A stretch of DNA of 64,000 nucleotides. It comes from Camelus dromedarius. Its lineage: Eukaryota. Shown here piece by piece: positions 12,093 through 64,000 of the stretch. The notes beneath the pieces were generated by a model. That model did no database searches, had not been told where the DNA came from, and was given only the letters and a program-made list of their open reading frames with translations. Location: NCBI RefSeq assembly GCF_036321535.1, contig NC_087436.1:12648001-12712000 (forward strand), written 5' to 3'. The translations under genes were made by a program, and so were the position numbers. The stretch's first letter is position 1. The number at the start of each line of letters is the position of its first letter.

Positions 12093-12228
12093 CGGGGGGT
12101 TTTCTTGGGGGGGGGGGCAAGAGGGTGTGAGCTAAAAGGTTTATTTATTTAATACTTTTTTAAATGGAGGCACTGGGGGTTGAATCCAGGGCCTTGTGCA
12201 TGCTAAGCATGTGCTATACCCTCCCCAC
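12093..12228 (-). mobile_element. tRNA-derived SINE (camelid-type) with a 13-bp target-site duplication
   Basis: Reverse complement gggagggtatagcac…cttagcatgcacaaggccctggattcaacccccagtgcctcc. TSD tccagcagcaatc at 12080-12092 and 12229-12241. Confidence 0.85.
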
Positions 12229-18747: not shown

Positions 18748-18890
18748 GGGGAGGGTGTAGCTCAGTGGTAGAGTGCATGCTTAGCATGCAAGAGGTCCTG
18801 GGTTCAATCCCCAGTACCTCCATTAAAATAAAGCAAACAAACAAATAAACCTAATTAACCTCCCCCACCAAAAAAAAAAAAAGAAGAAGA
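18748..18890 (+). mobile_element. tRNA-derived SINE (camelid-type)
   Basis: gggagggtgtagctcagtggtagagtgcatgcttagcatgcaagaggtcctgggttcaatccccagtacctcc (Pol III A and B boxes) plus an A-rich tail. Confidence 0.9.
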
Positions 18891-27372: not shown

Positions 27373-27871
27373 TGTTGACAGGAAACAGACTGCCAGATAT
27401 TTTTCCAGCAAAGATGGGTTTATTCAGGATCAGCAGAGAATTGCAATTCAGGGTCTGCAACCATGGTGAGCCATGTGAAAGTCCTCTGCAAAAATGGAGG
27501 GAAGGGGGAAGGTATAGCTCAGTGGTAGAGCCCACGCTTAGCATGCACAAGGTCCTGGACTCAATCCCAAGTACCTCCATCAAAAAAAAAAAAATCTTAA
27601 ATAGACTTAATTACCTCTCCTATTCCCCCCCCCCCGCCAAAAAAAAAAAAAAAATTGGAGAGGCTAACTCTTTTATAGATGGGAAAAGGAAGTCGGAAGG
27701 GCTTTGGTAAACAGAGTCCATGGCTTTTCATTGGCTGCGTCCTTGCCAGGAAAGAAGAGGAGTCTTTCTTCCTCCTAGTGAGGTTGGCTACCTTCACAGG
27801 GTGTGAGAGCTCCCCCTTCTGGTTTCCCAACTCTTTCTAATTGAGGTTTCTATTGATTATCTTTTTTTACA
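27373..27871 (-). mobile_element. Solo LTR (ERV1-like) with a 4-bp TSD CAAG, interrupted by a SINE
   Basis: TG…CA ends with CAAG on both sides. Minus-strand AATAAA (~27418) and TATAAAA (~27671). Confidence 0.75.
27504..27654 (+). mobile_element. tRNA-derived SINE nested in the solo LTR
   Basis: ggaaggtatagctcagtggtagagcccacgcttagcatgcacaaggtcctggactcaatccc plus A-tail. Confidence 0.88.
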
Positions 27872-30424
27872 CAAGAAAAATTAGGCGTAGCATGAAATGA
27901 AAAGAATTTACCATCGCTGAATTCCTGGGTAGTCATTTGTCCATGACTTGCCAGAGGTGAAGTGGAGAGAGATTCAAGTGCAGAGGTGGAGTTTGGAGGG
28001 AGAGTTAAGGGAGTCTTAGAAAGGAAATAAATGATGTTGGTCAAGTGTGCAGCAGTTGCTGCCTCTTTGGTTTCCACCCAGGAGTGTGCCACCTGGTCAG
28101 ATCAGGTGTCAGGACCAACATGGAGCCTCCATCTCTGCTTCTTCAGCCTGCACAGATCCTTGGAGGCAGCTGCAGGCTGAGCCATGCTTTGCCAACAAAA
28201 GCTGTCTATCTGATAAACTTTGGAAGTTCAGCTCATTGTCTGCCTCAGTATAAACAAGGAGATTTTCTCAAGAATGCTAACACACATTTGTAGAGAATCT
28301 GAGAAACTTTTGGGGTCAAGCTGCTCAAAGAGTTTCCCAAAGCCTTTGAACCTGAGTCCTGCCCTGTGTCTTGATCTCTGCTCCATCATTCTGTGAAAGA
28401 GAAGAATGGAAATGAAGTTCCCTTGACAGATTGTTGGAATAAGAGCCCAAGACTCTAGAGTCCCGTGCAGCTTCTTACTCTATTTCTACTCCTTCCCATT
28501 TCTCCTGACCCTGCTAGATTTTCTATCTGAATACGTGTTCTTTTCAAAAAAGCCAGGAGAAATGGGAATGTTCATTGATTTGACTGACCCTCTGATACTA
28601 ATCACTGTTCTGAAAGAAATGTGCTCTTCTGATAAGATTACAAATAGAGTATTTGTCCCTCAGAAAACAATTGTGAAAATTAACTTGTGATTTATATTCG
28701 TAAATGAGGCATGAAGCAGTTGACAGTATGTTTCATTCCAAGCAATGCCAAAGTGAAAAAAAGAGATGTCAGATATTCTACTGTTTTCTGAGTCTTTGTG
28801 CTTTCCTTTCTTTTCCCACCAAACTACTACAAACAGAAGCCTACACTCATTTCCCATTTACATTTTAACCTACAGTCTGCTGTCTCCCCTAACCTCCCCA
28901 ACACCCCAGTATGAAGCGTTAGTAGAGTACTTATGAATTAAGGTTGCTCAATTTCTTTGTCAAATCCAACGTGAACACTGCTCAGTCCTCTCTTCTAATC
29001 TTGATGCTATTCATACACTTACCTTCTAAAGCTCCCCACTCCGTGGCTTCCTCCCAGTCTCTCCTGGTCCGCTCTAGCCTTTTGCACCATTATTCCTCAG
29101 TCTCCTTCTGGAACTTTCTTGGTCTTTCTTTCTCCCTCTTATTGGTTTGCGACTTCAGTCTCCCATTAGTACACTTTATTTTAAAAATATCTCCTTTAGA
29201 GTAGCTCCAGTGTGCCTTGGAGCTCATGGTCATGCAGCTTGGCAACAACTTATTGGCCCAGGGAGGTCACCTGCTCTGATGGTATCTGACCTAAAGGATA
29301 TGACAGAGTCCAATTGCCCCAGGATCGTCCAATTTATAGCCTCAGCTTCATCCACCACCGTGAAAACTACCAAAGATATCTCCATCCCTGAGCTCTGTCT
29401 CAAGCAGGAGACTCAAATTTCCAATTGTTTACTCTGTATTTCTACCAACAGGACCCTCCGTGACTCAGACTTTGTATATCCAAGACCAGGCTCATCCTGC
29501 CTTTCCCAAGGCTAACTCCCGTAGGACGGCACAATGCGACCAGTTATATTTATCGGTGCACCATCTTTGCCTGTTATCCCTCAGATACATGTCTTGGTTT
29601 TTCCAGTAGGCTGTTTCCCAGGCTCTCCTGACAGCTGCTTTCTGGCTTAGTTGGCCAATGTGAGGCTCTCTTAAGAGATTAGGTGAGAGGAGGGGGGAAT
29701 CCAAGGCATTACACGTATACACACATATCTTGCCAGACAATGCTTAGAACGATTTCTGTTTTCTTGGTTGCATTGTGTATGAAACACTCTCCCTCTTTCT
29801 CACCCGTCAAATCACTCCATTCTCTCCTCTCTGTCCCCACTGCCACTGACTTACATCCAGTCTCCATCATTTCTCTCCTACATTTTGGTAATAGAATGTA
29901 TGTCCTTTGAGTTAAGTCTCCTCATTCAATCTATTCTCTATATTGTTGCAGAATGAGCTCTCTAAGGTGATAACCAGGTAGTCCTCTCCCATTTAAACTG
30001 ACCAGTAGTCGTCTTCAAAGGAAAATCAGCTGCAAGTAGCTCCTTTAGAGTAGCTTCCGCGTGCCTTGGAGCCCATGGTCGTGCAACTTGACAACAACTG
30101 GTTGCTGACCCAAGGGGGTCACCTGATCAGACCATATCTGACCTATAGGATAGGAGAGTGTTCAGTGCCCCATAAGGCAGCCTGGCTAGAGAACTTTGTT
30201 CACTGTGAGCACCGATAGTGCATCTAAACTAGTCAGCCTAATCAGATCCATTGGCAATTTTTGGGGAGAGACAGGGATGTGGCAGTGCGGAGCAGAAGTG
30301 GAAGAAACACAAAGTAGAGGTGTAAAGACAGTTATGGGGCAGCAGAAGCAATGGCACACTGAGAGTAGCAGTCAGTAGGCAGGCAGAGGAGTAGCAGTTC
30401 AAAGCTCAGTGTGGGGGCAGGTGG

Positions 30425-30512
30425 CTAGGGTGTCGCTCATGTGGTGGAGCGCATGCTCGGTATGCATGAGGTCCTGGGTTCAATCCCCAGTATCGCCATG
30501 AAAAAAAATAAA
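30425..30512 (+). mobile_element. tRNA-derived SINE, diverged copy
   Basis: agggtgtcgctcatgtggtggagcgcatgctcggtatgcatgaggtcctgggttcaatccccag plus aaaaaaataaacct. Confidence 0.8.
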
Positions 30513-39430: not shown

Positions 39431-39967
39431 CTTGTCCGACTGGGGGCTGATGGCGGTGCCGAACCTGCAGTAGGTCACGAAGTGCTCGCAATTGTTCCAC
39501 AGTAGGCTGTAGGAAGTCGTGCCCAGCAGCTTCTCCGCCCTCTGCGCCACCTCTTCGTTGAGCAGCGCCTTTTTCTTGAGGGACTTGTCCAGGTGATTGA
39601 CCAGGATGTCGGCACCGTAGGCAAAATCCTCCACCGTGTCCACGCGGATGCTGGCCACCTTGACAATGACGCCCAGGACGAGACGCTTGTTAGAGACCAC
39701 CTTCTGCGTGAGCCCCTTGTCATCGGTCAGGGCCAACAGGATGTCCGGCATCATGTGCGCGACACGGTTGTCGCCCAGGTAGATGCCATAGTGTGTGAAG
39801 TTGGTCCGGGGCACCTCCAGCACGTCGCCGCGGAGGAAAGAGTTTACACTGTAAGTGGTCATTGCCTTGTTCTCACCCGGGGTGCCCGAACTGAAGAGCT
39901 TGAAGTTGGAGATGAGGAGCAGCTTCTCCAGCACTAGGGACACCGCCTCCAGCATCGGGTTCTTCAT
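39431..39967 (-). CDS. LRAT: LRAT coding exon 2: lecithin retinol acyltransferase, permuted NlpC/P60 catalytic domain (full protein 229 aa)
   Basis: Acceptor ttttccctgcag|G-ATG. Encodes [22 protein letters not shown]…[14 protein letters not shown]…[16 protein letters not shown]…SPQSDK. Donor AAG|gtacga at 39431. Catalytic His/His/Cys (H59, H71, C160 here) are intact. Confidence 0.98.
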
Positions 39968-47984: not shown

Positions 47985-49504
47985 GAGGGAGCAGCCAAGA
48001 TGGCAGAGTAGAAGGACGCTCTTATCTCAGCCTCTCCCACCAAGAGAGACGTCCACGGACCCACCCATCCACTCAGAACACCTGCTGAACTTTGACAGAG
48101 CATCGCCTTCTTCAAAAGACAAAATTCATCACAAATCTGGTAGGAGGGGAAAAAAAAAAGGAGAAAAAAGGAAATTAGTGAGGGATCTGTTGCGGGGGAG
48201 CAGCAAAGGAGGAACAGCGCTCTTATGCTGGGATTCCCCTCCAACAGAGAGGTCAGTGGGGATGGAGGGGGAGCCTCTGAGGCTTGGATCAGTGCACAGC
48301 AGCCCTTGGCTGACAGAACTAAGTGAAATGGGCCTAAAATGTCCCTGAGATCCCCAGCCCTAGACTAGATGAGCCAGTGGGGGTGGGCGGGGACTGGCTG
48401 CCCAAGGCGGGCGGAGGACTGGGGCCCACCATGCAGAGGCAGCCTCAGGGGACTGGAGTGTGCTGTGTGCCGTGGCTGGGAGTGTATATAGAACAGAGCC
48501 TGGGTTCCCCATTTTAAAAAATTTTTAAAAATAGAAAAGAAGGCAACACTGCTGGTGCGTGTTGAGGGGAGGGGCACAACATGGCTGGGTGGTGGCCTTT
48601 GTCTCTGAAGACCCGCCGCACCATCACTGGTGCACTCTCAGGAGAAGAGAGATGGGCTCGGCCACAGCCACCGTATCCGCCGGTGCAGCTCCAGGGACGA
48701 GGTGGGGTTGGAACCTGAATCCGTACCCAAGGGCTCTGCAACTTCATAGGCAGGACTGAGATTTACTTACAGCCCCAGGCAGAGGGGACTGTTTTGCTCC
48801 GGAGGTGCCTTTGTGGACCCGCGCCTCTAAGACTAACAAGCAAGGAGTGGAGCTCTGCACGCAGCGGGGGCCAGGGCTGGTGCGGCCTGTTTTCTGTGAG
48901 CCCGCCTGCCTACCACGCGAGGACCCGGTGCTGGGAACGCGCTGACACTGCGGCGAGACCTGGTGGCGTGACCCGTGGGCCTCTGGAACGAGTGACTGGA
49001 GTTTGTGCAGTGGGGCGAGCGCAGGGGTGGCCTTTGGTGCTGGGGACAGCGCTGACCCCAACAGTGCACCACGGTCAGGTGTGCGACCCAGAAGTCAGTG
49101 GAACTGCACTGGTGGCTCTCAGGGCAGAGAACGTGGGGGACACCAGAGCAGCACACGGACATGCCCGTGGCTAAAGCGTGCATAAGGGCAGGTTCAACAA
49201 AGAGTACTCGCCACGCCCCAACCCCGCCTACTAAACACCACAGCTCAGAAATGGGGCTTGCAGTCTCTAATCCAAAAAAAAAGGGGAACAGACCCAGCCC
49301 CTGTCGGGGCTTGATGACCACAGAACAAAAAGGAGGCTCCACTCCACAGCCAGGGCAGGCTCTGGTCACACCACCACCAGCCACAGCCCCATTCAAAGGG
49401 AGAGCAGCCAACATACAAGGAAGAAAGATGTGGCAACCATCTGCACTAAAAACAGACCTGGTGACAAAATTATTAGGGGTGCACAGCCTACACAGGAGGG
49501 CCTC
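47985..49504 (+). mobile_element. L1-like 5'UTR / promoter fragment with no ORF1 or ORF2
   Basis: Begins GGGAGCAGCCAAGATGGC (YY1 motif typical of L1 5' ends) after an AT-rich TT/AAAA-like site. GC-rich for ~1.5 kb and ends at the ERV LTR. Confidence 0.6.
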
Positions 49505-49835
49505 TGTAGGGAAAATGGAGTCACTCCGGCTCCCTTGTCAGACATCTGGTGCCCAGTGACCCAGCTGTACTATCCTGCGTGTGCAGGACCCACGTAGTGT
49601 TGTATAAACGTGACTTGCAGCATCGAGTGCACTGGTGAGCGCCAATCATAGTTGGCTTGATGCCAGCTTTGTTTGCCTTGATATGTAAGGCGGGTGGGAC
49701 TTTCCACCACCACCACCGAAGCCTGTGTACTCCTTCGCAATAAGGGCATGTCAGAGATACCCCTGGCTCCGAGAGTGTTCTTCAGTCTGCCGGAATCCAG
49801 CGTGAACCTGCCAGGCCTTGAGCATTTGCAGTGCG
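49505..49835 (+). mobile_element. 5' LTR of a class III (ERV-S-like) provirus
   Basis: Starts TGTAGGG; TATAAA 49603-49608, CCAAT ~49642, GGGACTTTCC 49696-49705, decayed poly(A) signal AATAAG 49739-49744. Ends 2 nt before the PBS. Confidence 0.7.
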
Positions 49836-49837
49836 TT

Positions 49838-49855
49838 TGGTGTAGTCGGCAGGAC
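49838..49855 (+). promoter_or_regulatory. Retroviral primer-binding site complementary to tRNA-Ser
   Basis: TGGTGTAGTCGGCAGGAC matches 16/18 of TGGCGTAGTCGGCAGGAT, the complement of the tRNA-Ser(AGA-type) 3' end. Confidence 0.85.
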
Positions 49856-49870
49856 TCGCCGTGGACTGGT

Positions 49871-50630
49871 ATGGAGCCCTCTAAATCCCTAGGGTGGGTG
49901 GGCTTGAGGGGTGAACCCCGACGAGTATGTGGGACTCAGTAGCGAACATCTTTTCTACTTGGGCACCACCCCAGGGATGCCCAGAGGTGGATGGTCCCCC
50001 TGCCCAGGAGGAAAGGGCCCCACAGGAGGTAGGGGAGTCCCTAGAGAAGCCCAGTGCGCACATGGCAGCCAGGGCTTTGGAATGGGTGCTCCTCACAGCC
50101 CCGCAGGCTGAAACCAAAGCCTCACTGTGAGACATGGCAAAGGTTTAGAGTTACAGGAAAGGGAGGAGGCTTTGGAAGCCCGCATCTGAGCCCTGGAGGA
50201 AGATTTATGGGTTCTGGAGAGCCTGCCATCACCCCTTCCACGATGATGACAAGTTTGGGTGAGGTAGAAAGCCGTCAGACAGCAAAAGGGCGTACGAGCT
50301 GTTACCCGACAAATGGGGAAGTTAGCTAAAAGGACTGGGAAACCTGTCAAGGTCACTAGTACCCAGAATGTGGGCGCGCCTTGCAGGAGCCGGTGTAGAC
50401 TAAGCTGAGATAGATGGGAAACCTAATGCCCACTTACTGGAGTTACGGCAGGAGTTGAGGGAGGAGCAGAGGTCCACTTCCATGAGAAGGCATACCCCTG
50501 CTGTGAAAAGCACCAAGGAGTCCAAGGGGACCAGAGCAGTGCACCCTGAGGACCACGTGCTTCCCCGGGAGGAGGAAATGCTTTGTTTGCCTTTGAATAG
50601 AATGCAGGCCAAGGAACCTGCCTACAGGGG
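49871..50630 (+). pseudogene. gag: Degenerate ERV gag (class III, ERV-S/L-like)
   Basis: Fragments WDSVANIFSTWAPP…VDGPPA…ALEWVLLTA and VTST(Q)MWARLAGAGVD*AEIDGKPNAHLLELRQEL resemble ERV-S/L Gag; stops and frameshifts present. Confidence 0.6.
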
Positions 50631-50639
50631 GCAGACGGG

Positions 50640-50940
50640 GACCAGAGGCCGCATGTACAGCTTGCTGTTTACTGGTCCCCGACCATCGTGCAGCGAGTAT
50701 TGGCCTTGGTGGACACGGGGGCTGAATGCACTCTGTTACATGACGAGGCCCAGGGGCCTACATAGATGGCTATGTGGGGAAAAGTATCTGGGTGAAAGCT
50801 ATACAATTGCTCCTTGGAATAGGGCGATTGGCCCCTAGAGAACACAAAGTTCATGTGTCCCCAGTACCAGAACATCTACTGGGCATAGACGTGCTCACGG
50901 CCTGTGGCTGCAGACAACTGCCGGTGAGTTCTGCCTGCGA
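50640..50940 (+). pseudogene. pro: Degenerate retroviral aspartic protease
   Basis: DQRPHVQLAVYWSPTIVQRVLALVDTGAECTL with DTG at 50712-50720, and LLGIDVL at ~50877-50897. Confidence 0.85.
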
Positions 50941-53468
50941 GTACGGGTGGTGAAGGCAGTAGAGTGGGGACGCGCAAAACACCCTCCAGGACAGTTGCCT
51001 GTTTCCTGGCGGGTCACCAACACCAAACACTATAAACTGCCAGGAGGTCATGACGAAATTACAGGCATTGTTGCAGAATTAGAAAAGGTGGGTATTTTAC
51101 ACCAGCCCATAGTCCATTCATTTCTCCTGTATGGCCAGTGCGTAAACCCGATGGTACTTGGAGAATGACTGTGGACTACCAGGAGTTAAACAAGGTAGTC
51201 CCTCCACTGCATGCCACAATGCCTTGGGTGGCCAAATTGATGGAGCGGCTAAGCCATAAGTTGGGCACATATCATTTCGTGGCCGATCTGGCAAATGCTT
51301 TCTTTTTGATTGGCATTGCCCCTGAGAGTCAAGATCAATTTGCCTTCACCTGGGAAGGACAACAGTGGGCATTTACAGACTTACCCCAGGGATATTTACA
51401 CAGAGCCTGTGAATTAGACATGCACGTTGCTCCTGAGGGATTTGGCTGGGGTATGTGGCAACATTCAGAGCATTTGCAACAGCCCATAGGGTTTTGGTTC
51501 CAACTATGGAAGGGAGCAGAAAGCCGGTGCTCTCCTGTGGAGAAACAATTGGCTGCTGAATACGCGGCCTCGCTAGCTACTGAGGGTGTAACCGGCACAA
51601 TGCTGGTGATGCCCGCACCACCCACCCCATAGCGGCTTGGATAAGAGAGTGGACCTCAAAGCCCCGAAGTGGGGCAGCCCAAACTCCTACACTGGCAAAA
51701 TGGGGGGCACACTTACAGCAGCAGACTGTGCTTTCCATGAGCCCTTTGCATGCGTAACTCCAGGAGGTCCTGGGGGTGGTGACTTATGTGGGTAGCACGC
51801 CCACCGCTGAGTCCCCTTTGAAGACTGAGCCAGAAGCTAGTCCCTGCCAAGAATGTAGGGCCCCTGTGCCAGCAGATGCATGGTATATGGATGGTTCAAG
51901 TTGAGGGCAGCCCCCGACTTGGATAGCGGTTGCCATCCAGCCTGAGTCTGATACCATTTGGTGTGATACTGGGGCTGGCCAGAGCGGTCAGTGCGCAGAG
52001 CTACGTGCGGCACTGTTAGCTGTAGCCAATGAATCGCCGACCATTGCTGTCTGCACTGACAGGTGGGCAGTCTGCAGAGGACTGACCCTGTGGATTTCCA
52101 CCTGTCATTTGAGTAAATGGTCTGTCACGCATAGGCCTTTGTGGGGCCAAGACTTGTGGCAAGACCTCTGGGAGTTACATCACCAAAAGCAGGTGACTGT
52201 GTTCCATGTGACTGGACTTGAAACTTTGGCCTCACGAGGGAACGATGAGGCCGATACCCTGGCAGAGTTCTGATGGCTAGAGACTGCCCCGGGAGATGGA
52301 GCCCCCAGAAGTGACGTGACATATGGCTGCACTGACACCTGCTGCACGTGGGGCAAAAGGCAATGTGGGCCTCTGTGCGCACCTGGGGACTGCCAGTGAG
52401 CCTGGCAGAGGCGCACAATGCCTGTGAGCAACGTGTGGTATGTTCTAAGGCGCACTCAGGCGGCCCCCGGGCCCCTCAGGCCAGGTATTGCAGGGCAGAT
52501 CCCCCCAACTCACTGGCAAGTGGACATTGCTGGCCCGCTGCCTGGCTCTGAAGGCTGTCGTTATGCCGGCACTGTGTAGAGACTGCAGCAGGCCTGTCGG
52601 CGGCCCATCCAGTTCAACACCCGGAGCAGAGGGCTGTGTTGCGAGCGCTGGGACCCCTCTGTGTGGTGTATGGACGTCCTCTAGTGATTACAGGTGAACG
52701 GGGAACTCATTTTACTGGAGCCCAAGTGCAAAGGTGGGCACGGACATGAATATTGAGTGGGGAGGTTTCATATCCCTTACAACCCAAGGCCACAGGTATT
52801 ATAGAACAGTACAATGGCCCACTGAAACAAGGCTGCGAGCTAATGCCAACTGTGGAGGGATGGACCAAAGGGCTATGGGACGTCCTGCGAACCCTTAATG
52901 AACGCAGCTGACACGATGGCCCGGCTCCAGCAGAGGCGCTGCTCCATCGCGCTGCTGCACCCACATAGATCCAAGTCCAGGTGAAGGATATTTTGCTGAA
53001 ACCTGGATTTGGGCGACAATGTAGTATATTGCTGACGGCGCCAACCAGAGTGGAGAAGGGGCAGACCCTAACGTGGACGGGGCCTTGGACTATTCGGGCC
53101 CCCCACATGCGTCGGGTAGCCCTTATAGCACCAGGGGGGCCAGACTAGAAGCTGATTTACAAGTAACCCTGTGATTTATAGGACAATGGCCTCCCAGAGT
53201 AGAGGTAACACAGCCAGGGGTGGCACATCGATCCACTGTACTAAAAGGGACTTTTATGTTGGCCGTGTGGCCTATTAGGAGTTCTCTGTTACTGCATATT
53301 GAACCTGCAGAAGCCTCTCTTGGCTAAGCGAGTGTGGTATGCCAGTTCAAGAAGGCTGCTGCTCCCAGCCACTGAGTTATCAGCCGATAAAGCATTGGCA
53401 TGGATCTTGCCCGAGGGACAGGACCTACCACGGCTCATACCACTAACAGCCTGTCTTTTTGCCCTTAG
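50940..53468 (+). pseudogene. pol: Degenerate pol (RT with core deletion, RNase H, integrase)
   Basis: KPDGTWRMTVDYQELNK…DLANAFF…QFAFTWEG…LPQGYLH; tether PIGFW…EKQL; RNase H WYMDGS (~51881) and AELRA; integrase WQVD.GPLP (~52514), GTHFTG and FHIPYNP.ATGIIEQYNG.LK. Multiple stops and frameshifts. Confidence 0.92.
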
Positions 53469-54560
53469 GTTTGTTTGGACTAACACCCTGGTTGACTGGG
53501 CACACACTTGTGAGATGATTGCTAACCATTAGGCTTGCTGGATCTGCACTGAGTTGCCTGTTAGTGCCTCAGATGGGCTCCCGTGGAAAATTAAAGCAGC
53601 CTCTGAGGTTAATTGGACTTCGCTAAGAATGTGGAATGATACTAATCCACAATAGAACTTAATCAAAAAGAGGATACTTGCTGGGGTGAGAGAGTGCGTA
53701 AATCGCCCTCGCCCTGGATGGGATGTTCCATATAGGACAGTCTCGGCTGGGTGACAGCTGCAATGGTCAAGCCTCTGGCACGCATCCCCTTCTGCGTTGA
53801 GAGTTCAAAAAGACGGGACCATGTCAGATGGATCCCGTCTGGCCCGTGCAATAATGTTACTTGAGTAGCAAAGGGGGAGAAAAGGGGAAAGAGGAGTGGC
53901 ACCTTAGCCTGGCTTGTCCCTTGTGGGAGCCTTTGGGTCCGTGGGCAGTAAAGCCGACCATATCTGCCCCACCGCTGGACCGGCGGAGGCACTTGGGGAT
54001 GGCCACCTCTCCCTGTGTGGGTGCTGCCTACTTCACAGACCCGCCTAAGTAAGTGGGGAGCGCTTGAGGCATGCCACAGGGTATGGCGCACCCCTTGGTG
54101 GTGTCACCCCTCAGCTCTTTCTTCCCCCCAGGCAGCCACCATAGGGACAGAAGCAGAGATCAGTGCTTCAGCAGTGCACACGGCCAGGGCATTTAACGAG
54201 ACCCATAAAGCCCTGGGCCTTCTTAATGGTGAGGTGTATCAGCTGCGAAAGCTAGCTTTGCAAAATCGTACGGCACTTGATATTCTGACAGCTTCAGAGG
54301 GTGGGATGTGTGCCCTTGTAGGATCTGACTGCTGTGTTTATGTTCCAGATGCTCATCATAATATCAGCCAGGCTCTGATGGCCTTGGAAAAGAGCTAAGA
54401 GCTACTGAACACCTGACTGGAGACCCCCACAAGAATGGAAGGGATCACTGACTTCTGAGTGGTGCTTGGTAATAGCCATTTTGGAAGTATCTGCTTTTGT
54501 ATTAGCAGCTTGCTGTTGTAGTCTCTCTTGATGCTGTGGATTATGGATGGAGAGATCCAT
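53469..54560 (+). pseudogene. env: Degenerate gamma-type env (SU-TM)
   Basis: CWIC (53536-53547), SU C-terminal LWV.G…PYLP..WTG, RVWR cleavage-like site, ISD LQNRTALDILTASEGGM (54258-54308), CX6CC CALVGSDCC (54309-54335) and a hydrophobic TM-like stretch near 54460-54530. Confidence 0.9.
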
Positions 54561-55819
54561 CTGTCCTGTGAGCCCTTAATGAAGGCAGCTGACGCGATGG
54601 CCCAGCTCCAGTAGAGGCATTGCTCCAACGTGCCACTGCACCCAAGAGTCATCTTTTTGAATGACCTTCAAAATCTCTTTGACTCTAAAATTCCACACTT
54701 CTTTGAGAACGGCAAGAGTAATGCATTTTAATATTTCCCCTCTAGCTAAATTCAGATTTGTAAAGCAAGTCATAATGATCACAAAATATTAGCATAATTT
54801 ACATTTTATTTACCTATTTTAAAATTATGTATATATCAAAAATTATTTATACCAGTAAAATCTTCCCAAATAGCCAAATAGATAAAGTGTACTGAGTCAC
54901 AGTATCTGCCTGTTCCTGAAGAAGCATATGTTTGTTTCTTCCAAATAAGTAAAGACCAAGGGGTGGGGTGGGTCGGCACACGGCAAGTAGAAACAAGACG
55001 GGGAAGTTGTTAAGAAAGTCTATTCTGTAGCCGAGTTGCTGGGCTTCAAATCCTGGCTTTTCTACTTAGCTCTGTGACCTTGGGTAAGTTACTTAACTCC
55101 TCTGGTCTCAGTTATCTCCTCTTCAAAAATGAGTATGGTGATAAATATGATGCTGACCTCACAAGTTTGTGGTAAGGATTAAAGAATAAATATGCACATG
55201 TTATTTAAGAGCAGTGCCTAATAAGAACTCAAGAAATGGTGGTTGCATAATAGTTCTCATTCTGCAACACATTTAGCAATCTATTGATTATCGATTGCTC
55301 TCATGTAAATTTGCAAGAGGTGGCAAAGGTCCATAGGGTAGTAGGGAATTCTGTAAATGGGGATGGGAGAATTCTACTCTCTGATCCACCTCAGTAAGTA
55401 CTTACTGAATACTTAGGTTGTGTGTGGGCTCAGAGATACAACAGGAAATGAGATGCAGTCCCCTCCCTAATGGAACACAGGACCTGCTAGGGACGGGGGA
55501 GACCTAAATAAACTGCCCCAGTTCAGTGTGATGTGCTAAAAGAGCAGCAGCTCTCAAGGCGCCGGGACACTGATGAAGGAGTAATTAATTCTAACGGGGG
55601 CAGGGAAAGTGAGAGATGGGGTAGCACCTGAGCTGCACCATGAGGAGTTGGGGTTTGCTAGGCACACACGGTAGGGGTAAGTTAGTGCCGAAAGGCCAGG
55701 CAGGCTAAGGAAACATGAACAAAAGCAAAATTCTTAAAAATTGTTGGGTATATTTTGCAGAGCCATAGTGCAGCTCAATCAGAATAGAAGGCATATGCTT
55801 CTCCAAGAGCAGAGGGTCA

Positions 55820-55990
55820 GAGAGGGTACAGTTCAGTGGTAGAGTGTGTGCTTAGCATGCACAGGGTCCTGGGTTCAATCCCTGGCGCCTCCATTAAAAA
55901 ATAACTAAATCTAATTGCTTCCCTGACAAATTTTTTTAAATGGACTTTCATCCATACACCACATCAAAAAAAAGAAAAAGGAAAAAAATA
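55820..55990 (+). mobile_element. tRNA-derived SINE (camelid-type)
   Basis: gagagggtacagttcagtggtagagtgtgtgcttagcatgcacagggtcctgggttcaatccctggcgcctcc plus A-rich tail. Confidence 0.85.
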
Positions 55991-56353
55991 AGAGTAGAGG
56001 CTAGAGCCCCACTTGGGAGGCTTGAGGGGACAGGCTGGGAAGGCCTCCTACGCCGCTCCGGGCACTCACACGTTATTCCGCAGGCAGCAGAGAGCCAGGG
56101 GAGGCCTTCAAGTAGGGGACCGAGAAGATCTGGATCGGAGGGAGGAAGGAGAGACGCTGGAAGCAGAGACCAGTTAGAAGTCCACTTAGTAGTCTAGGAA
56201 AGGGGCTGAAACAGGGGGAGGGAGCTAGAACAAGGCAGAGGTGATGGAGGGGCAGGGACAAAAGCTGAAAGACACTTCTGGAGATAGACTGACAAGGTTT
56301 GGTGACCTGGATGCAGTGGTGGTGGCAGGAGTGCTAAGAGGAGTAACTGAGAC

Positions 56354-56962
56354 TGAGACAGGAGGGAAGGGGACAGGGCACAGCCATTAAAAGAATGACA
56401 CAGCAATCAGCACCAAGATGGTGGGAGATTCAAGTCCCAGTAGACGCTGAGCTTCAATATACACTCACTGAAATACACTAGGATGCTATATGGCACTCCC
56501 ACAGGTGCCAGGGCAATTTTAAGTGTGACCATAAAATGTCAAAAAGTGAGTGATGGCCCAGTTCCTGGGGACCCCCCCATCCCCAAAGTAGTTGAAATAA
56601 TCCTCCCTCTTGTGAGCATATGAAGTTACCAAGCCCATAAGTACTAACAACCCCACACCCTGTGGCCTCTCCTTTCTGGATGAGATGGCCGCACTCTGTC
56701 TATGGAGTGTGCACCTACTTTTGTTTTAAAACTAAATACTCACCCCCCACACCTCATGGCCTTTCTCTCGCCTTCTGAGACAGCCTCTGTCCATGAAGTA
56801 TGTATCTCTCTAAATAAATCTATCTTTACTCACTTGTGGCTCACTCCTGAATTCTTTCCTGCATGAAACCAAGGACCGACACTTGGTGGGGCACATCCCA
56901 GGGACTCAACTGTGACCTGGGACACGGCCGTCCTCTCACCCCACATTCATTTTCCTATATCA
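56354..56962 (+). mobile_element. Solo ERV1 LTR (MER41-like)
   Basis: TGAGACAGG…CCTATATCA; near-TSD agac/ggac; AATAAA ~56813. Same family as the copies at 63498-64000. Confidence 0.75.
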
Positions 56963-58626
56963 GGACCAGGACTCTGAAGTTTCTTGCTGGAGCAACTGGA
57001 CAGAGAGTAAGACAAGAAAGGAAGGAGTAGGAATAGGTTTATGGGAGGAAGAGAATGGGTTCAACCTCAGATATATTGAATTTCAAGCATCTACAGCTTT
57101 TCAAATGGGGATGTTTAGTAGGCAGATAAGTAGGGGAAAAAGGATCTCTGGAGAAGAGTCTGGCCAAGAGAAAAAGAGGCGGGAGTCACAAGTGTCTGGT
57201 GGGTAGTAAAGGCTTTGGTGCAGATGAAAATGCCCAGGGGCGGCACACAGCAAGGGAGGAGGAGACAGTGGGGACAGAGCTCAGCATAAAGGGAAGGCAG
57301 CACTAAGGAGTCATCAAGGTGCTTGAGGAAAACTGAGAGGCTGAAGAAAGTCTTCATAGGAGGGTGTGGTCAGTAGTGCCAAAAGCAGATGAGCTAGCAA
57401 GAGGGTCCAGGGGCTCTTGGATGAGGCAACAAGGAAGGTCCTAGAGCTGCAGAAGTTTCAGGGAGCCAGACTGCAGAGGGTGCAGAGAGTAGGAGTTAGG
57501 CAAAGGGAAGGACTAGGCAAAAAATGGAGATGATGATTGCAAGAAGTTCTGCAGAAAGGAAAGGAAAAAGAGGGGATCAAATGGAAGATTTCTTGTTACT
57601 TGCTTCTTGTTTGTTTTAATGGGGAACACATGAGGATATTTGTACCCCCAAAGGAAGGGAAACCAGAGGAGAGAACAAGTGCATAGCTCAGGGGAAGTCA
57701 GACCCAGAGGCGGTGGGGAGCCATTGGATCAAAGCTCCAGGTGGGAGAGTTAGAACTGGTGGTGGGTAAGGGCTCTTGTTCTCCAAGTCAGGAAAGGGGG
57801 AAGCAGGTAAGAAAAGAAGCTTTAGACACGTTTGGAAGTGGAAGTCAAAAAGACACTCACTTTAGTTTGTACTCTAAACTCTGAAGAAGGAAACTCCCCA
57901 ACCCAACCCAACCCGTTGGCAAAGTTGGCATGGATGGCCCAAGACTTGATGCAACCAGGAGATTCATGTAAGTTTATGGGTGTATAAGAAATTGACACCG
58001 TAACACTAGGCTATTTGCATATGGTGCGGATCTCAACGAAAAATGAGAGAGTTTGGAATTCCATTCCTATTCAGAGCATTTATTTATAGTAAATTTTACA
58101 TCCATGTTCCAAGGAGCTTATTAATCTTTTATCTCCTCATCTGTTAAGTAACAACAAGCTATTCCTCAGTGATGTCAGTCTCTAGGATTAAACCAGAGGT
58201 GTGGTGAGGTGCTGAAAAGGAAATCATATTTATGATGGACACTAGGGAAAATCAGGCTCATAGGATCATTCATTAAAATCCCTACTCACATTTTTATTAT
58301 GTCAAATCACTTCAAAATTATTACCAAACTATTTACTATGGAACAGAAAATACGGTTAAATTAAAAGTGGTCAGTCCCCTGGACTAAAATGCAAAAATAG
58401 TTTTACAGCAAGCCTTGAACTTAATTTGAGTTCAAAGTATTAGGTCACTGTACCATTAACTTTCAGACTGTTTCCTATTGAGAAGGCTAAAATATTCAAA
58501 TATTTTCTATTTTTTTCAAAATCCGTGTGAGGATACTACAAATGTGTGAAAAAATTGCATAAGTAATTGATAGGCTGCTTCTTTGAACCTGAACTTAATT
58601 TGTATACTTTCGCATGAAGATTGTTT

Positions 58627-63497: not shown

Positions 63498-63866
63498 TGA
63501 TTCCGGAAAACATGGGGTGTGAGAGGATGGCCATGTCCCAGGTCTTGGTTGAGTCCCTGAGACAAGTCCCACCAAGTGAGGGTCCTTGGCTTCATGCAGG
63601 AAAGAATTCAAGAGTGAACCATAGTTGAATAAAGGTAGATTTGTTCAGAGAGGCGTACACTCTATAGACAGAGTGTAGGCCGTCTCAGAAGGCAAGAGAG
63701 AGAGCGACCATGAGGTGTGGGGTTGTTAGTTTTTATGGGCTTGGTAATTTCCTATGCTAATGAGTAGAAGGATTATTCCAACTACTTTCGGGAAGGGGCA
63801 GGGATTCCCAGGAATTGGGCCAACGCCCAATTTTTGACCTTTTATGGTCAGCCTCAGAAATGTCAA
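63498..63866 (-). mobile_element. 5'-truncated ERV1 LTR (MER41-like), same family as 56354-56962
   Basis: Reverse complement matches the 3' two-thirds of the 56354-56962 LTR (…gaccataaaa.gtcaaaaa…gaattctttcctgcatgaa.ccaaggacc…ctctcac.cccca…ttttcc…tca). Confidence 0.8.
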
Positions 63867-64000
63867 GACCAGCTTTGAGGTTGACCATAAAAGGTCAAAG
63901 AGCGGGCAGTGGCCCAGTTCTTGGGAATCCCCACCCCTTCCCCAGGGTAGTGAGAATGGTCCTCCCACTTGTTAGCATATGAAGCTACCGAGCCCATAAA
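63867..64000 (+). mobile_element. Second, oppositely oriented copy of the same LTR, running off the right edge
   Basis: tgaggttgaccataaaaggtcaaag…ggcccagttcttgggaatcccc…gcatatgaagctaccgagcccataaa. Confidence 0.8.

Follow-up and report, generated by a model that had tools for sequence, protein, structure and literature searches.

The stretch of DNA considered here is a 64-kb segment (64,000 nucleotides) of the Camelus dromedarius genome, contig NC_087436.1, positions 12,648,001 to 12,712,000, which we call the window. It harbors the gene LRAT and, upstream of it, the remnant of an endogenous retrovirus (ERV). The provirus spans 49505-54562 on the plus strand and is composed of a 5' long terminal repeat (LTR), a primer binding site for tRNA-Ser, gag, pro, pol and an envelope gene (env) of the gamma type. 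LRAT (Pfam E 8e-40) is read from the minus strand and starts with an ATG at 39967. The start of the LTR lies 9,538 bp from this ATG, with the provirus upstream of the gene, head-to-head with it and pointing away from it, and hence the distance of about 9 kb given in an earlier, sequence-only reading of this DNA is correct. We are highly confident that the element is a dead ERV-S retrovirus, with a class III gag-pro-pol lacking a dUTPase, serine priming and a gamma-type env, that has decayed and encodes nothing functional.

Anatomy of the locus

The following features and motifs were read at the locus, where RT stands for reverse transcriptase, ISD for the immunosuppressive domain and HR1 for the first heptad repeat.

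47986..49497, plus strand: high-copy repeat outside the virus, adjoining the LTR; longest matches 71-77% over 1.3-1.5 kb
49505..49835, plus strand: 5' LTR, 331 bp; 76-83% identical to both LTRs of four sister proviruses
49838..49855, plus strand: primer binding site for tRNA-Ser(AGA/TGA), 16/18 matches
49927..50640 (limits approximate), plus strand: gag remnant, read by translation; many stops and frameshifts
50641..50940, plus strand: protease remnant, DTG at 50712; frameshifted
50706, plus strand: LVDTGAE
50941..53460, plus strand: pol remnant with the N-terminal half of RT, tether, RNase H (about 51870-52270) and integrase (WQVD at 52514)
51144, plus strand: KPDGTWRMTVDY
51285, plus strand: DLANAFF
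51336, plus strand: QFAFTWEG
51381, plus strand: LPQGY
52514, plus strand: WQVDIAGPLP of integrase
53461..54562 (start approximate), plus strand: env remnant; stop codon at 54396, with the membrane anchor lying in a different frame
53536, plus strand: CWIC of env
54078-54089, plus strand: decayed furin site of env
54195, plus strand: NET, HR1 glycan site of env
54258, plus strand: LQNRTALDILTASEGGM, ISD of env
54309-54335, plus strand: CX6CC of env
54563..54644, plus strand: second copy of integrase DNA 52882-52963, 82 bp, in place of the env end, polypurine tract and 3' LTR

The motifs of protease, RT, integrase and env follow in order on the plus strand, spread over three frames with many stops. 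All those listed by the sequence-only reading were found in place, including the integrase motif FHIPYNP...GIIE.YNG, which is split by a frameshift across two frames near 52770-52820 and was for this reason missed by a one-frame pattern. A Pfam scan of five open reading frames found domains in three, RNase_H (E 1.4e-12), TLV_coat (8.1e-8) and RVT_1 (5e-5, under the cut-off because the RT domain is truncated), and gave no match in the other two.

The 5' LTR starts with TGT, and the terminal CA of most LTRs in sister copies of the family is CG in the window copy. When the primer binding site was compared with the complement of the 3' end plus CCA of the same genome's tRNA-Ser(AGA) and tRNA-Ser(TGA) genes, it matched at 16/18 positions, the count that had been claimed, and comparable tRNA-Ser primer sites are present in the sisters L009, L010, L012 and L013. 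The high-copy repeat that adjoins the LTR (3448 first-look candidates, 40 scored) is missing from the flanks of the sister proviruses. From its 5' end motif we take this repeat to be the putative 5' untranslated region (UTR) of an old LINE-1 (L1), which was probably the insertion site of the provirus. When the remaining part of this L1 was sought downstream, 54645-55800 had no match to the window or to the fetched loci, a comparison that included no L1 body. The bases GCCTC at 49500-49504, just before the LTR, are also the target-site repeat of L013 on a different contig; since the flanks diverge further out, this agreement is probably due to chance.

The window copy carries two large internal deletions that the sequence-only reading did not mention. 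One, of about 630-680 bp near 50235, lies in gag and appears as a gap against five sister copies. The other, of about 500 bp at 51403/51404, has taken the YIDD catalytic site of RT, which can be read in the sisters L009 and L013. With stops, frameshifts and large deletions read throughout, the element is defective in all frames, as had been stated. The provirus had been drawn from 49505 to 54644; this extent stands up to 54562, while the last 82 bp duplicate part of the integrase and no 3' LTR is present. These 82 bp form the sole direct repeat within the element and agree with the window's own integrase at 70/82 positions (85%) and with six sisters at 61-68/82. The copy is old, and an assembly duplication is ruled out by the 85% identity. 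Since no base state is private to both this copy and the window integrase, it may have arisen by duplication from this provirus itself, by a template switch while reverse transcription was under way, or as what is left of another, second provirus. Neither a polypurine tract nor a 3' LTR or target-site repeat was found after env, past 54563-54644, and a deletion probably removed the 3' LTR and the rest.

Polymerase and envelope

Several observations connect the polymerase to class III. The protease aligns to the N-terminus of the avian class III Pol P0045 and by eye is near HERVS Pro and unlike HERVL Pro; the start and end of gag are, also by eye, like the HERVS Gag/Pro puteins. The RT stretch scored 80 bits with foamy-virus RTs, 52 with murine leukemia virus (MLV) and at most 35 with the remaining RTs, whereas a true gamma-type Pol reaches 537 bits against MLV over RT-RNase H. 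The RT tree, built by a quick method from 68 rows and 112 columns, does not contain L012, L013 and L024, which were below the length filter. In this tree the window falls into a 47-row mammal/bird clade (SH-aLRT 99) of galliform, bat, armadillo and HERV-S-like RTs, outside of which stand one MLV-like row, dUTPase-bearing fish/amphibian rows and gypsy rows. Within the clade the window's group (94) is sister to six HERV-S-like rows (84), which are unnamed proteins labelled by resemblance to the published HERVS consensus. Identity of the RT to four HERV-S-like proteins is 66-69% over 96-100 amino acids. At this level of RT identity the element probably represents an ERV-S family separate from HERV-S. 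When the dUTPase regions of P0048 and P0050 were used as queries, no match was obtained in the element or in six sisters (E<=10).

The HERVS consensus sequences, of which the first 400 characters were compared, are those given by Vargiu 2016 (PMC4724089) in supplements 3 and 4. By eye, protease, RT, tether, the last Pol residues, the start of the surface subunit (SU) and the transmembrane subunit (TM) are similar to HERVS, and the window is plainly farther from HERVL, HERVL32 and HERVL66.

The sequence-only reading had assigned the pol to class III of ERV-S type, and the higher foamy than MLV score and the clade shared with HERV-S-like rows agree with this. Clustering of RT or integrase with gammaretroviruses, which it had raised as the contrary outcome, did not occur, as the RT stands apart from the MLV-like row. 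A gammaretrovirus is recognized by an MLV-like RT, and ERV-L proper by a dUTPase after the integrase, the lack of an env and a tRNA-Leu primer. That the element is one of these instead of an ERV-S is very unlikely. The listed RT motifs and YIDD are common to ERV-L and ERV-S, and the tree held no mammalian ERV-L sequence. However, the primer site is of serine type, there is no dUTPase and an env is present; Pro and RT are by eye like HERVS and unlike the HERVL, HERVL32 and HERVL66 puteins, and the MLV score is far from that of a true gamma-type Pol. The serine primer site, the RT clade, the missing dUTPase and a joined class I env together are those of an ERV-S.

The env shows the three hallmarks by which gamma-type envelopes are defined, a CXXC in SU (here CWIC), the ISD and CX6CC, and the covalent SU-TM signature proposed earlier is thereby borne out. 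In such envelopes a labile disulfide joins the CXXC of SU to the CX6CC of TM; binding to the receptor leads to its isomerisation and thereby frees the fusion subunit. An HR1 glycan site is described for some of these envelopes (PMC9967133). Matches of the TM in the PDB are to syncytins, the MLV TM and filovirus GP2. Counted by eye against the HERVS env consensus, the SU start agrees at 29/51 and the TM at 31/53 positions; the PRIMA41b TM agrees at 34/53. Given stops, frameshifts and flat singleton changes, the env is not a captured, syncytin-like gene.

The differing affinities of pol and env, and a window copy without a 3' LTR closing the unit, might be explained by a separate gamma-type env inserted beside an env-less class III element. 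This possibility has in our view almost no chance of being right, since it is refuted by the sister copies: of nine sister loci fetched for anatomy, five (L009-L013, the 3' LTR of L011 being partial) hold the same pol and env within one LTR pair. Moreover, the end of pol passes into the start of env as in the HERVS consensus, and the window TM groups with six sister TMs in a TM tree (without L009, L025, L030 and 12 database rows, which were too short). Because the sisters carry pol and env between LTR pairs, env is an integral part of the proviral unit, and the unrelated adjacent insertion that the sequence-only reading had considered did not turn up. The pairing of a class III pol with a gamma-type env is inherited, a clade trait older than this camelid family, and was not formed here, because the camel element is like the HERV-S consensus in protease, RT, the junction of pol with env, the SU start and TM.

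Family, selection, age and a possible regulatory role

In the genome search 40 of 108 candidates were scored and the counts are therefore a lower bound: the family has at least 10 loci with internal sequence, including the window copy, and at least 28 LTR-only loci. Besides the five paired-LTR proviruses, the fetched loci are L014 (pol, env, 3' LTR), L015 (env between an LTR piece and an LTR), L016 (gag-RT, one LTR) and L017 (LTR and gag start). The least deleted sister copies span 6.6-6.7 kb. The 5-bp target-site repeats of L010, L013 and L015 match exactly, those of L009 and L012 imperfectly. On contig C13, at 35.7-47.9 Mb, three full sister proviruses, three LTR-only matches and several loci of a second family form a cluster.

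This second ERV-S-like set comprises L024-L042, L044, L045, L049, L051 and L053 (for example C20:962881-964983). Most of these loci have only about 300 bp at 65-72% identity in common with the window pol; TM matches near 40% identity were found in 10 loci, and a dUTPase match in none of the set. The set forms its own clade in the RT tree (15 rows, 91) and in the TM tree (10 rows, 99), and it looks younger because several of its branches are short. The family of the window copy is one of two ERV-S families in this genome, and the earlier assignment to a camelid member of the ERV-S clade holds for both host and clade. A public 2.2-kb contig (P0143) encodes a 127-amino-acid protein 99% identical to the TM-containing frame of the window; it is the same locus in another data set and no indication of function. 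A fraction of 0.99 of the element's words is present in 14 runs (DNA or untyped; 8 studies, two organisms; 10 possibly source material).

Changes were counted by codon position in 6-9 natural copies with all possible CpG columns masked, and a looser mask gives an agreeing result. Variants shared by at least two copies, counted at the first, second and third positions, number 6/2/15 for RT (p 0.0014), 10/12/32 for RNase H (p<0.0001), 14/5/26 for the SU C-terminus and TM together (p 0.0005) and 10/5/17 for TM by itself (p 0.011); the LTR, used as a control, has 7/17/9 (p 0.79). No third-position excess was seen among singleton changes in any of six regions. Variants common to several copies mostly predate insertion. 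This is the pattern of purifying selection on pol and env while the virus was replicating, after which the copies decayed neutrally in the host genome. Third-position enrichment in env as in pol fits spread by reinfection, and the excess in env lends weight to the earlier proposal of a once-infectious virus.

LTR pairs of four sister copies differ by 0.13-0.18 (Kimura two-parameter distance; 0.10-0.17 CpG-masked), which corresponds to 30-42 million years (My), or 22-38 My CpG-masked, if 2.2e-9 substitutions per site and year are assumed. Copy-to-copy tip lengths over RNase H-integrase without CpG give 40-57 My, an upper bound because viral divergence is included; the tip length of the window copy, 0.104, is ordinary.

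The history of the dead ERV-S provirus may be pictured as follows. From known retrovirology, the ancestral virus would have used tRNA-Ser as the primer of reverse transcription and gained entry to cells by an Env in which SU, with its N-terminal CXXC, was disulfide-linked to TM through CX6CC; the 5-bp repeats made by integrase would complete an ordinary retroviral cycle. It presumably entered the germ line of a camelid ancestor roughly 30-55 My ago. The selection signal supports a spread of the family while env still functioned, and so by infection and not only by intracellular copying; at least 10 proviral and at least 28 LTR-only loci were left behind. The window copy probably landed in the L1 5' UTR, lost parts of gag and RT and its 3' end, and has since decayed neutrally.

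Some points weigh against this account. Most forks of the RT tree are open, one gamma row sits on a long branch, the tree contains neither a foamy row nor a mammalian ERV-L row, and its HERV-S-like rows are unnamed and identified only by resemblance to the consensus. At the SU N-terminus, for which there are only 11 shared variants, third positions are not in excess (5/2/4, p 0.46), and shared variants may include repeat mutations. The LTR-pair ages (22-42 My) are younger than the copy-to-copy tip lengths (40-57 My), all dates depend on the assumed rate, and the window copy is not datable by its own LTRs.

A different question is whether the dead virus was co-opted, with the L1-like 5' UTR and the LTR acting as a promoter or enhancer head-to-head with LRAT. 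We regard this as unlikely. The CpG observed/expected ratio of the window copy is 0.39 (LTR 0.53), the highest of seven copies at an ordinary tip length, and 47-78% of the element's words occur in four RNA runs from two studies; two further RNA runs with word shares of 0.06-0.10 were disregarded. However, the upstream flank has a ratio of 0.29 and the sister L013 one of 0.33, and hence a regional effect suffices to explain CpG retention. DNA carry-over or read-through could account for the RNA runs, no frame is kept and singleton changes are neutral. Among the sisters the ratio is 0.06-0.08 in the three C13 copies and 0.20-0.33 in the other three, which suggests differing germ-line methylation at the loci. 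A more far-reaching reading would add to co-option that the ERV-S family is undescribed and env-selected, came into camelids by an invasion separate from that of the second family, and is nearer to primate HERV-S than to this second family, implying cross-order transmission; the window copy, together with the L1-like promoter, would have escaped germ-line methylation and would drive or enhance transcription head-to-head with LRAT. Taken as a whole, we hold this combination to be improbable.

Other parts of the window contain further features. At 281-2179 on the minus strand there are exons with RRM and DND1-type dsRBD domains, which probably belong to RBM46, the usual neighbour of LRAT. Five related tRNA-headed repeats lie at 18751-18822, 12100-12220, 27505-27654, 30419-30512 and 55822-55912; the single tRNA-Ala match reported by ARAGORN is one of them and for that reason is most likely a short interspersed element. 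A repeat that resembles an LTR but belongs to another family is present once at 56351-56969 and again at the end of the window, 63512-64000, as two inverted copies, tail-to-tail or head-to-head (125-bp arms, 19 nt apart). A second inverted pair, 58627-59184/60968-61520, has copies of about 560 bp with 87% identity, 1.8 kb apart, which are AT-rich and have A-tails.

Known relatives and significance

The element is not a new kind, since a class III pol with a gamma-type env is already known for ERV-S. HERV-S had been named by the sequence-only reading as the sole env-bearing exception in class III. This does not hold: HERVL32 and HERVL66 are, like HERVS, described with class I envelopes and no dUTPase, all credible class III env found in that survey were class I (Vargiu 2016, PMC4724089), and the frog XtERV-S also has an env (PMC8278194). 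HERV-S (HERV18/LTR18; supergroup HSERVIII) resembles the camel element in its serine-type name and priming, its class III pol without dUTPase and its class I env; the camel element differs in its RT (66-69% amino acid identity to HERV-S-like proteins), its own 331-bp LTR and its camelid host. According to the same survey, HERVS Pol clusters with an avian ERVL and the HERVS env is linked to PRIMA41/PABL. The best named env relatives of the window copy are a sloth PABLB-like Env (49%, to the TM-containing frame) and syncytin-Car1 (41%), and the env match of Atlas row 3 is likewise PABLB-like. This PABLB-like affinity is in line with the published link. The PABLB-like and syncytin-Car1 envelopes are intact and the latter is host-captured, whereas the env of the window copy is interrupted by stops and frameshifts and its furin site has decayed.

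Among amniote Pols, mole LOC129144682 (P0060) has the same domain order and no dUTPase, with 57% identity over 748 aligned amino acids. The bat proteins P0007 and P0019 (56% and 53%) and the galliform P0045/P0046 (38-46%) share this domain order and also lack a dUTPase. Where included, these ERV-S-like Pols fall in the same clade as the window; they differ in their open frames and hosts, and P0060, which is without the N-terminal half of RT, is outside the tree. XtERV-S of Xenopus shares the class III pol, the Ser(AGA/TGA) primer site, an N-terminal CWIC, ISD, CX6CC, the HR1 glycan site and TGT...ACA LTR ends. However, it is intact and recent, with 705-bp LTRs, a dUTPase-like region and a gag-pol nearer ERV-L, and it is set apart from mammalian ERV-S, described as env-associated and dUTPase-less (Yedavalli 2021, PMC8278194; the case is also reviewed in PMC10536682). 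According to the former paper, no living mammalian counterpart of this type of virus is known.

HERV-S-related ERVs are reported in 29 of 61 bat species, with ERV-like elements in 34 (PMC12402889). In horse, Ser-primed ERVs are listed but not classed as ERV-S (PMC5682256). The text of a survey of transposable elements in Camelus goes no further than clusters and counts per superfamily; these elements may be listed in its supplements (PMC8605555). Literature searches of titles and abstract openings found no publication on a camelid ERV-S family.

No concept is changed by these findings, as the pairing of a class III pol with a class I env has been published for humans and frogs, and HERV-S-related ERVs for bats. 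They extend the range of ERV-S to a camelid genome and further support the view that the gamma-type envelope was still in working order when mammalian ERV-S viruses spread. The presence of two separate ERV-S families with an env in a single genome would be of use in timing the movement of the group between mammal orders.

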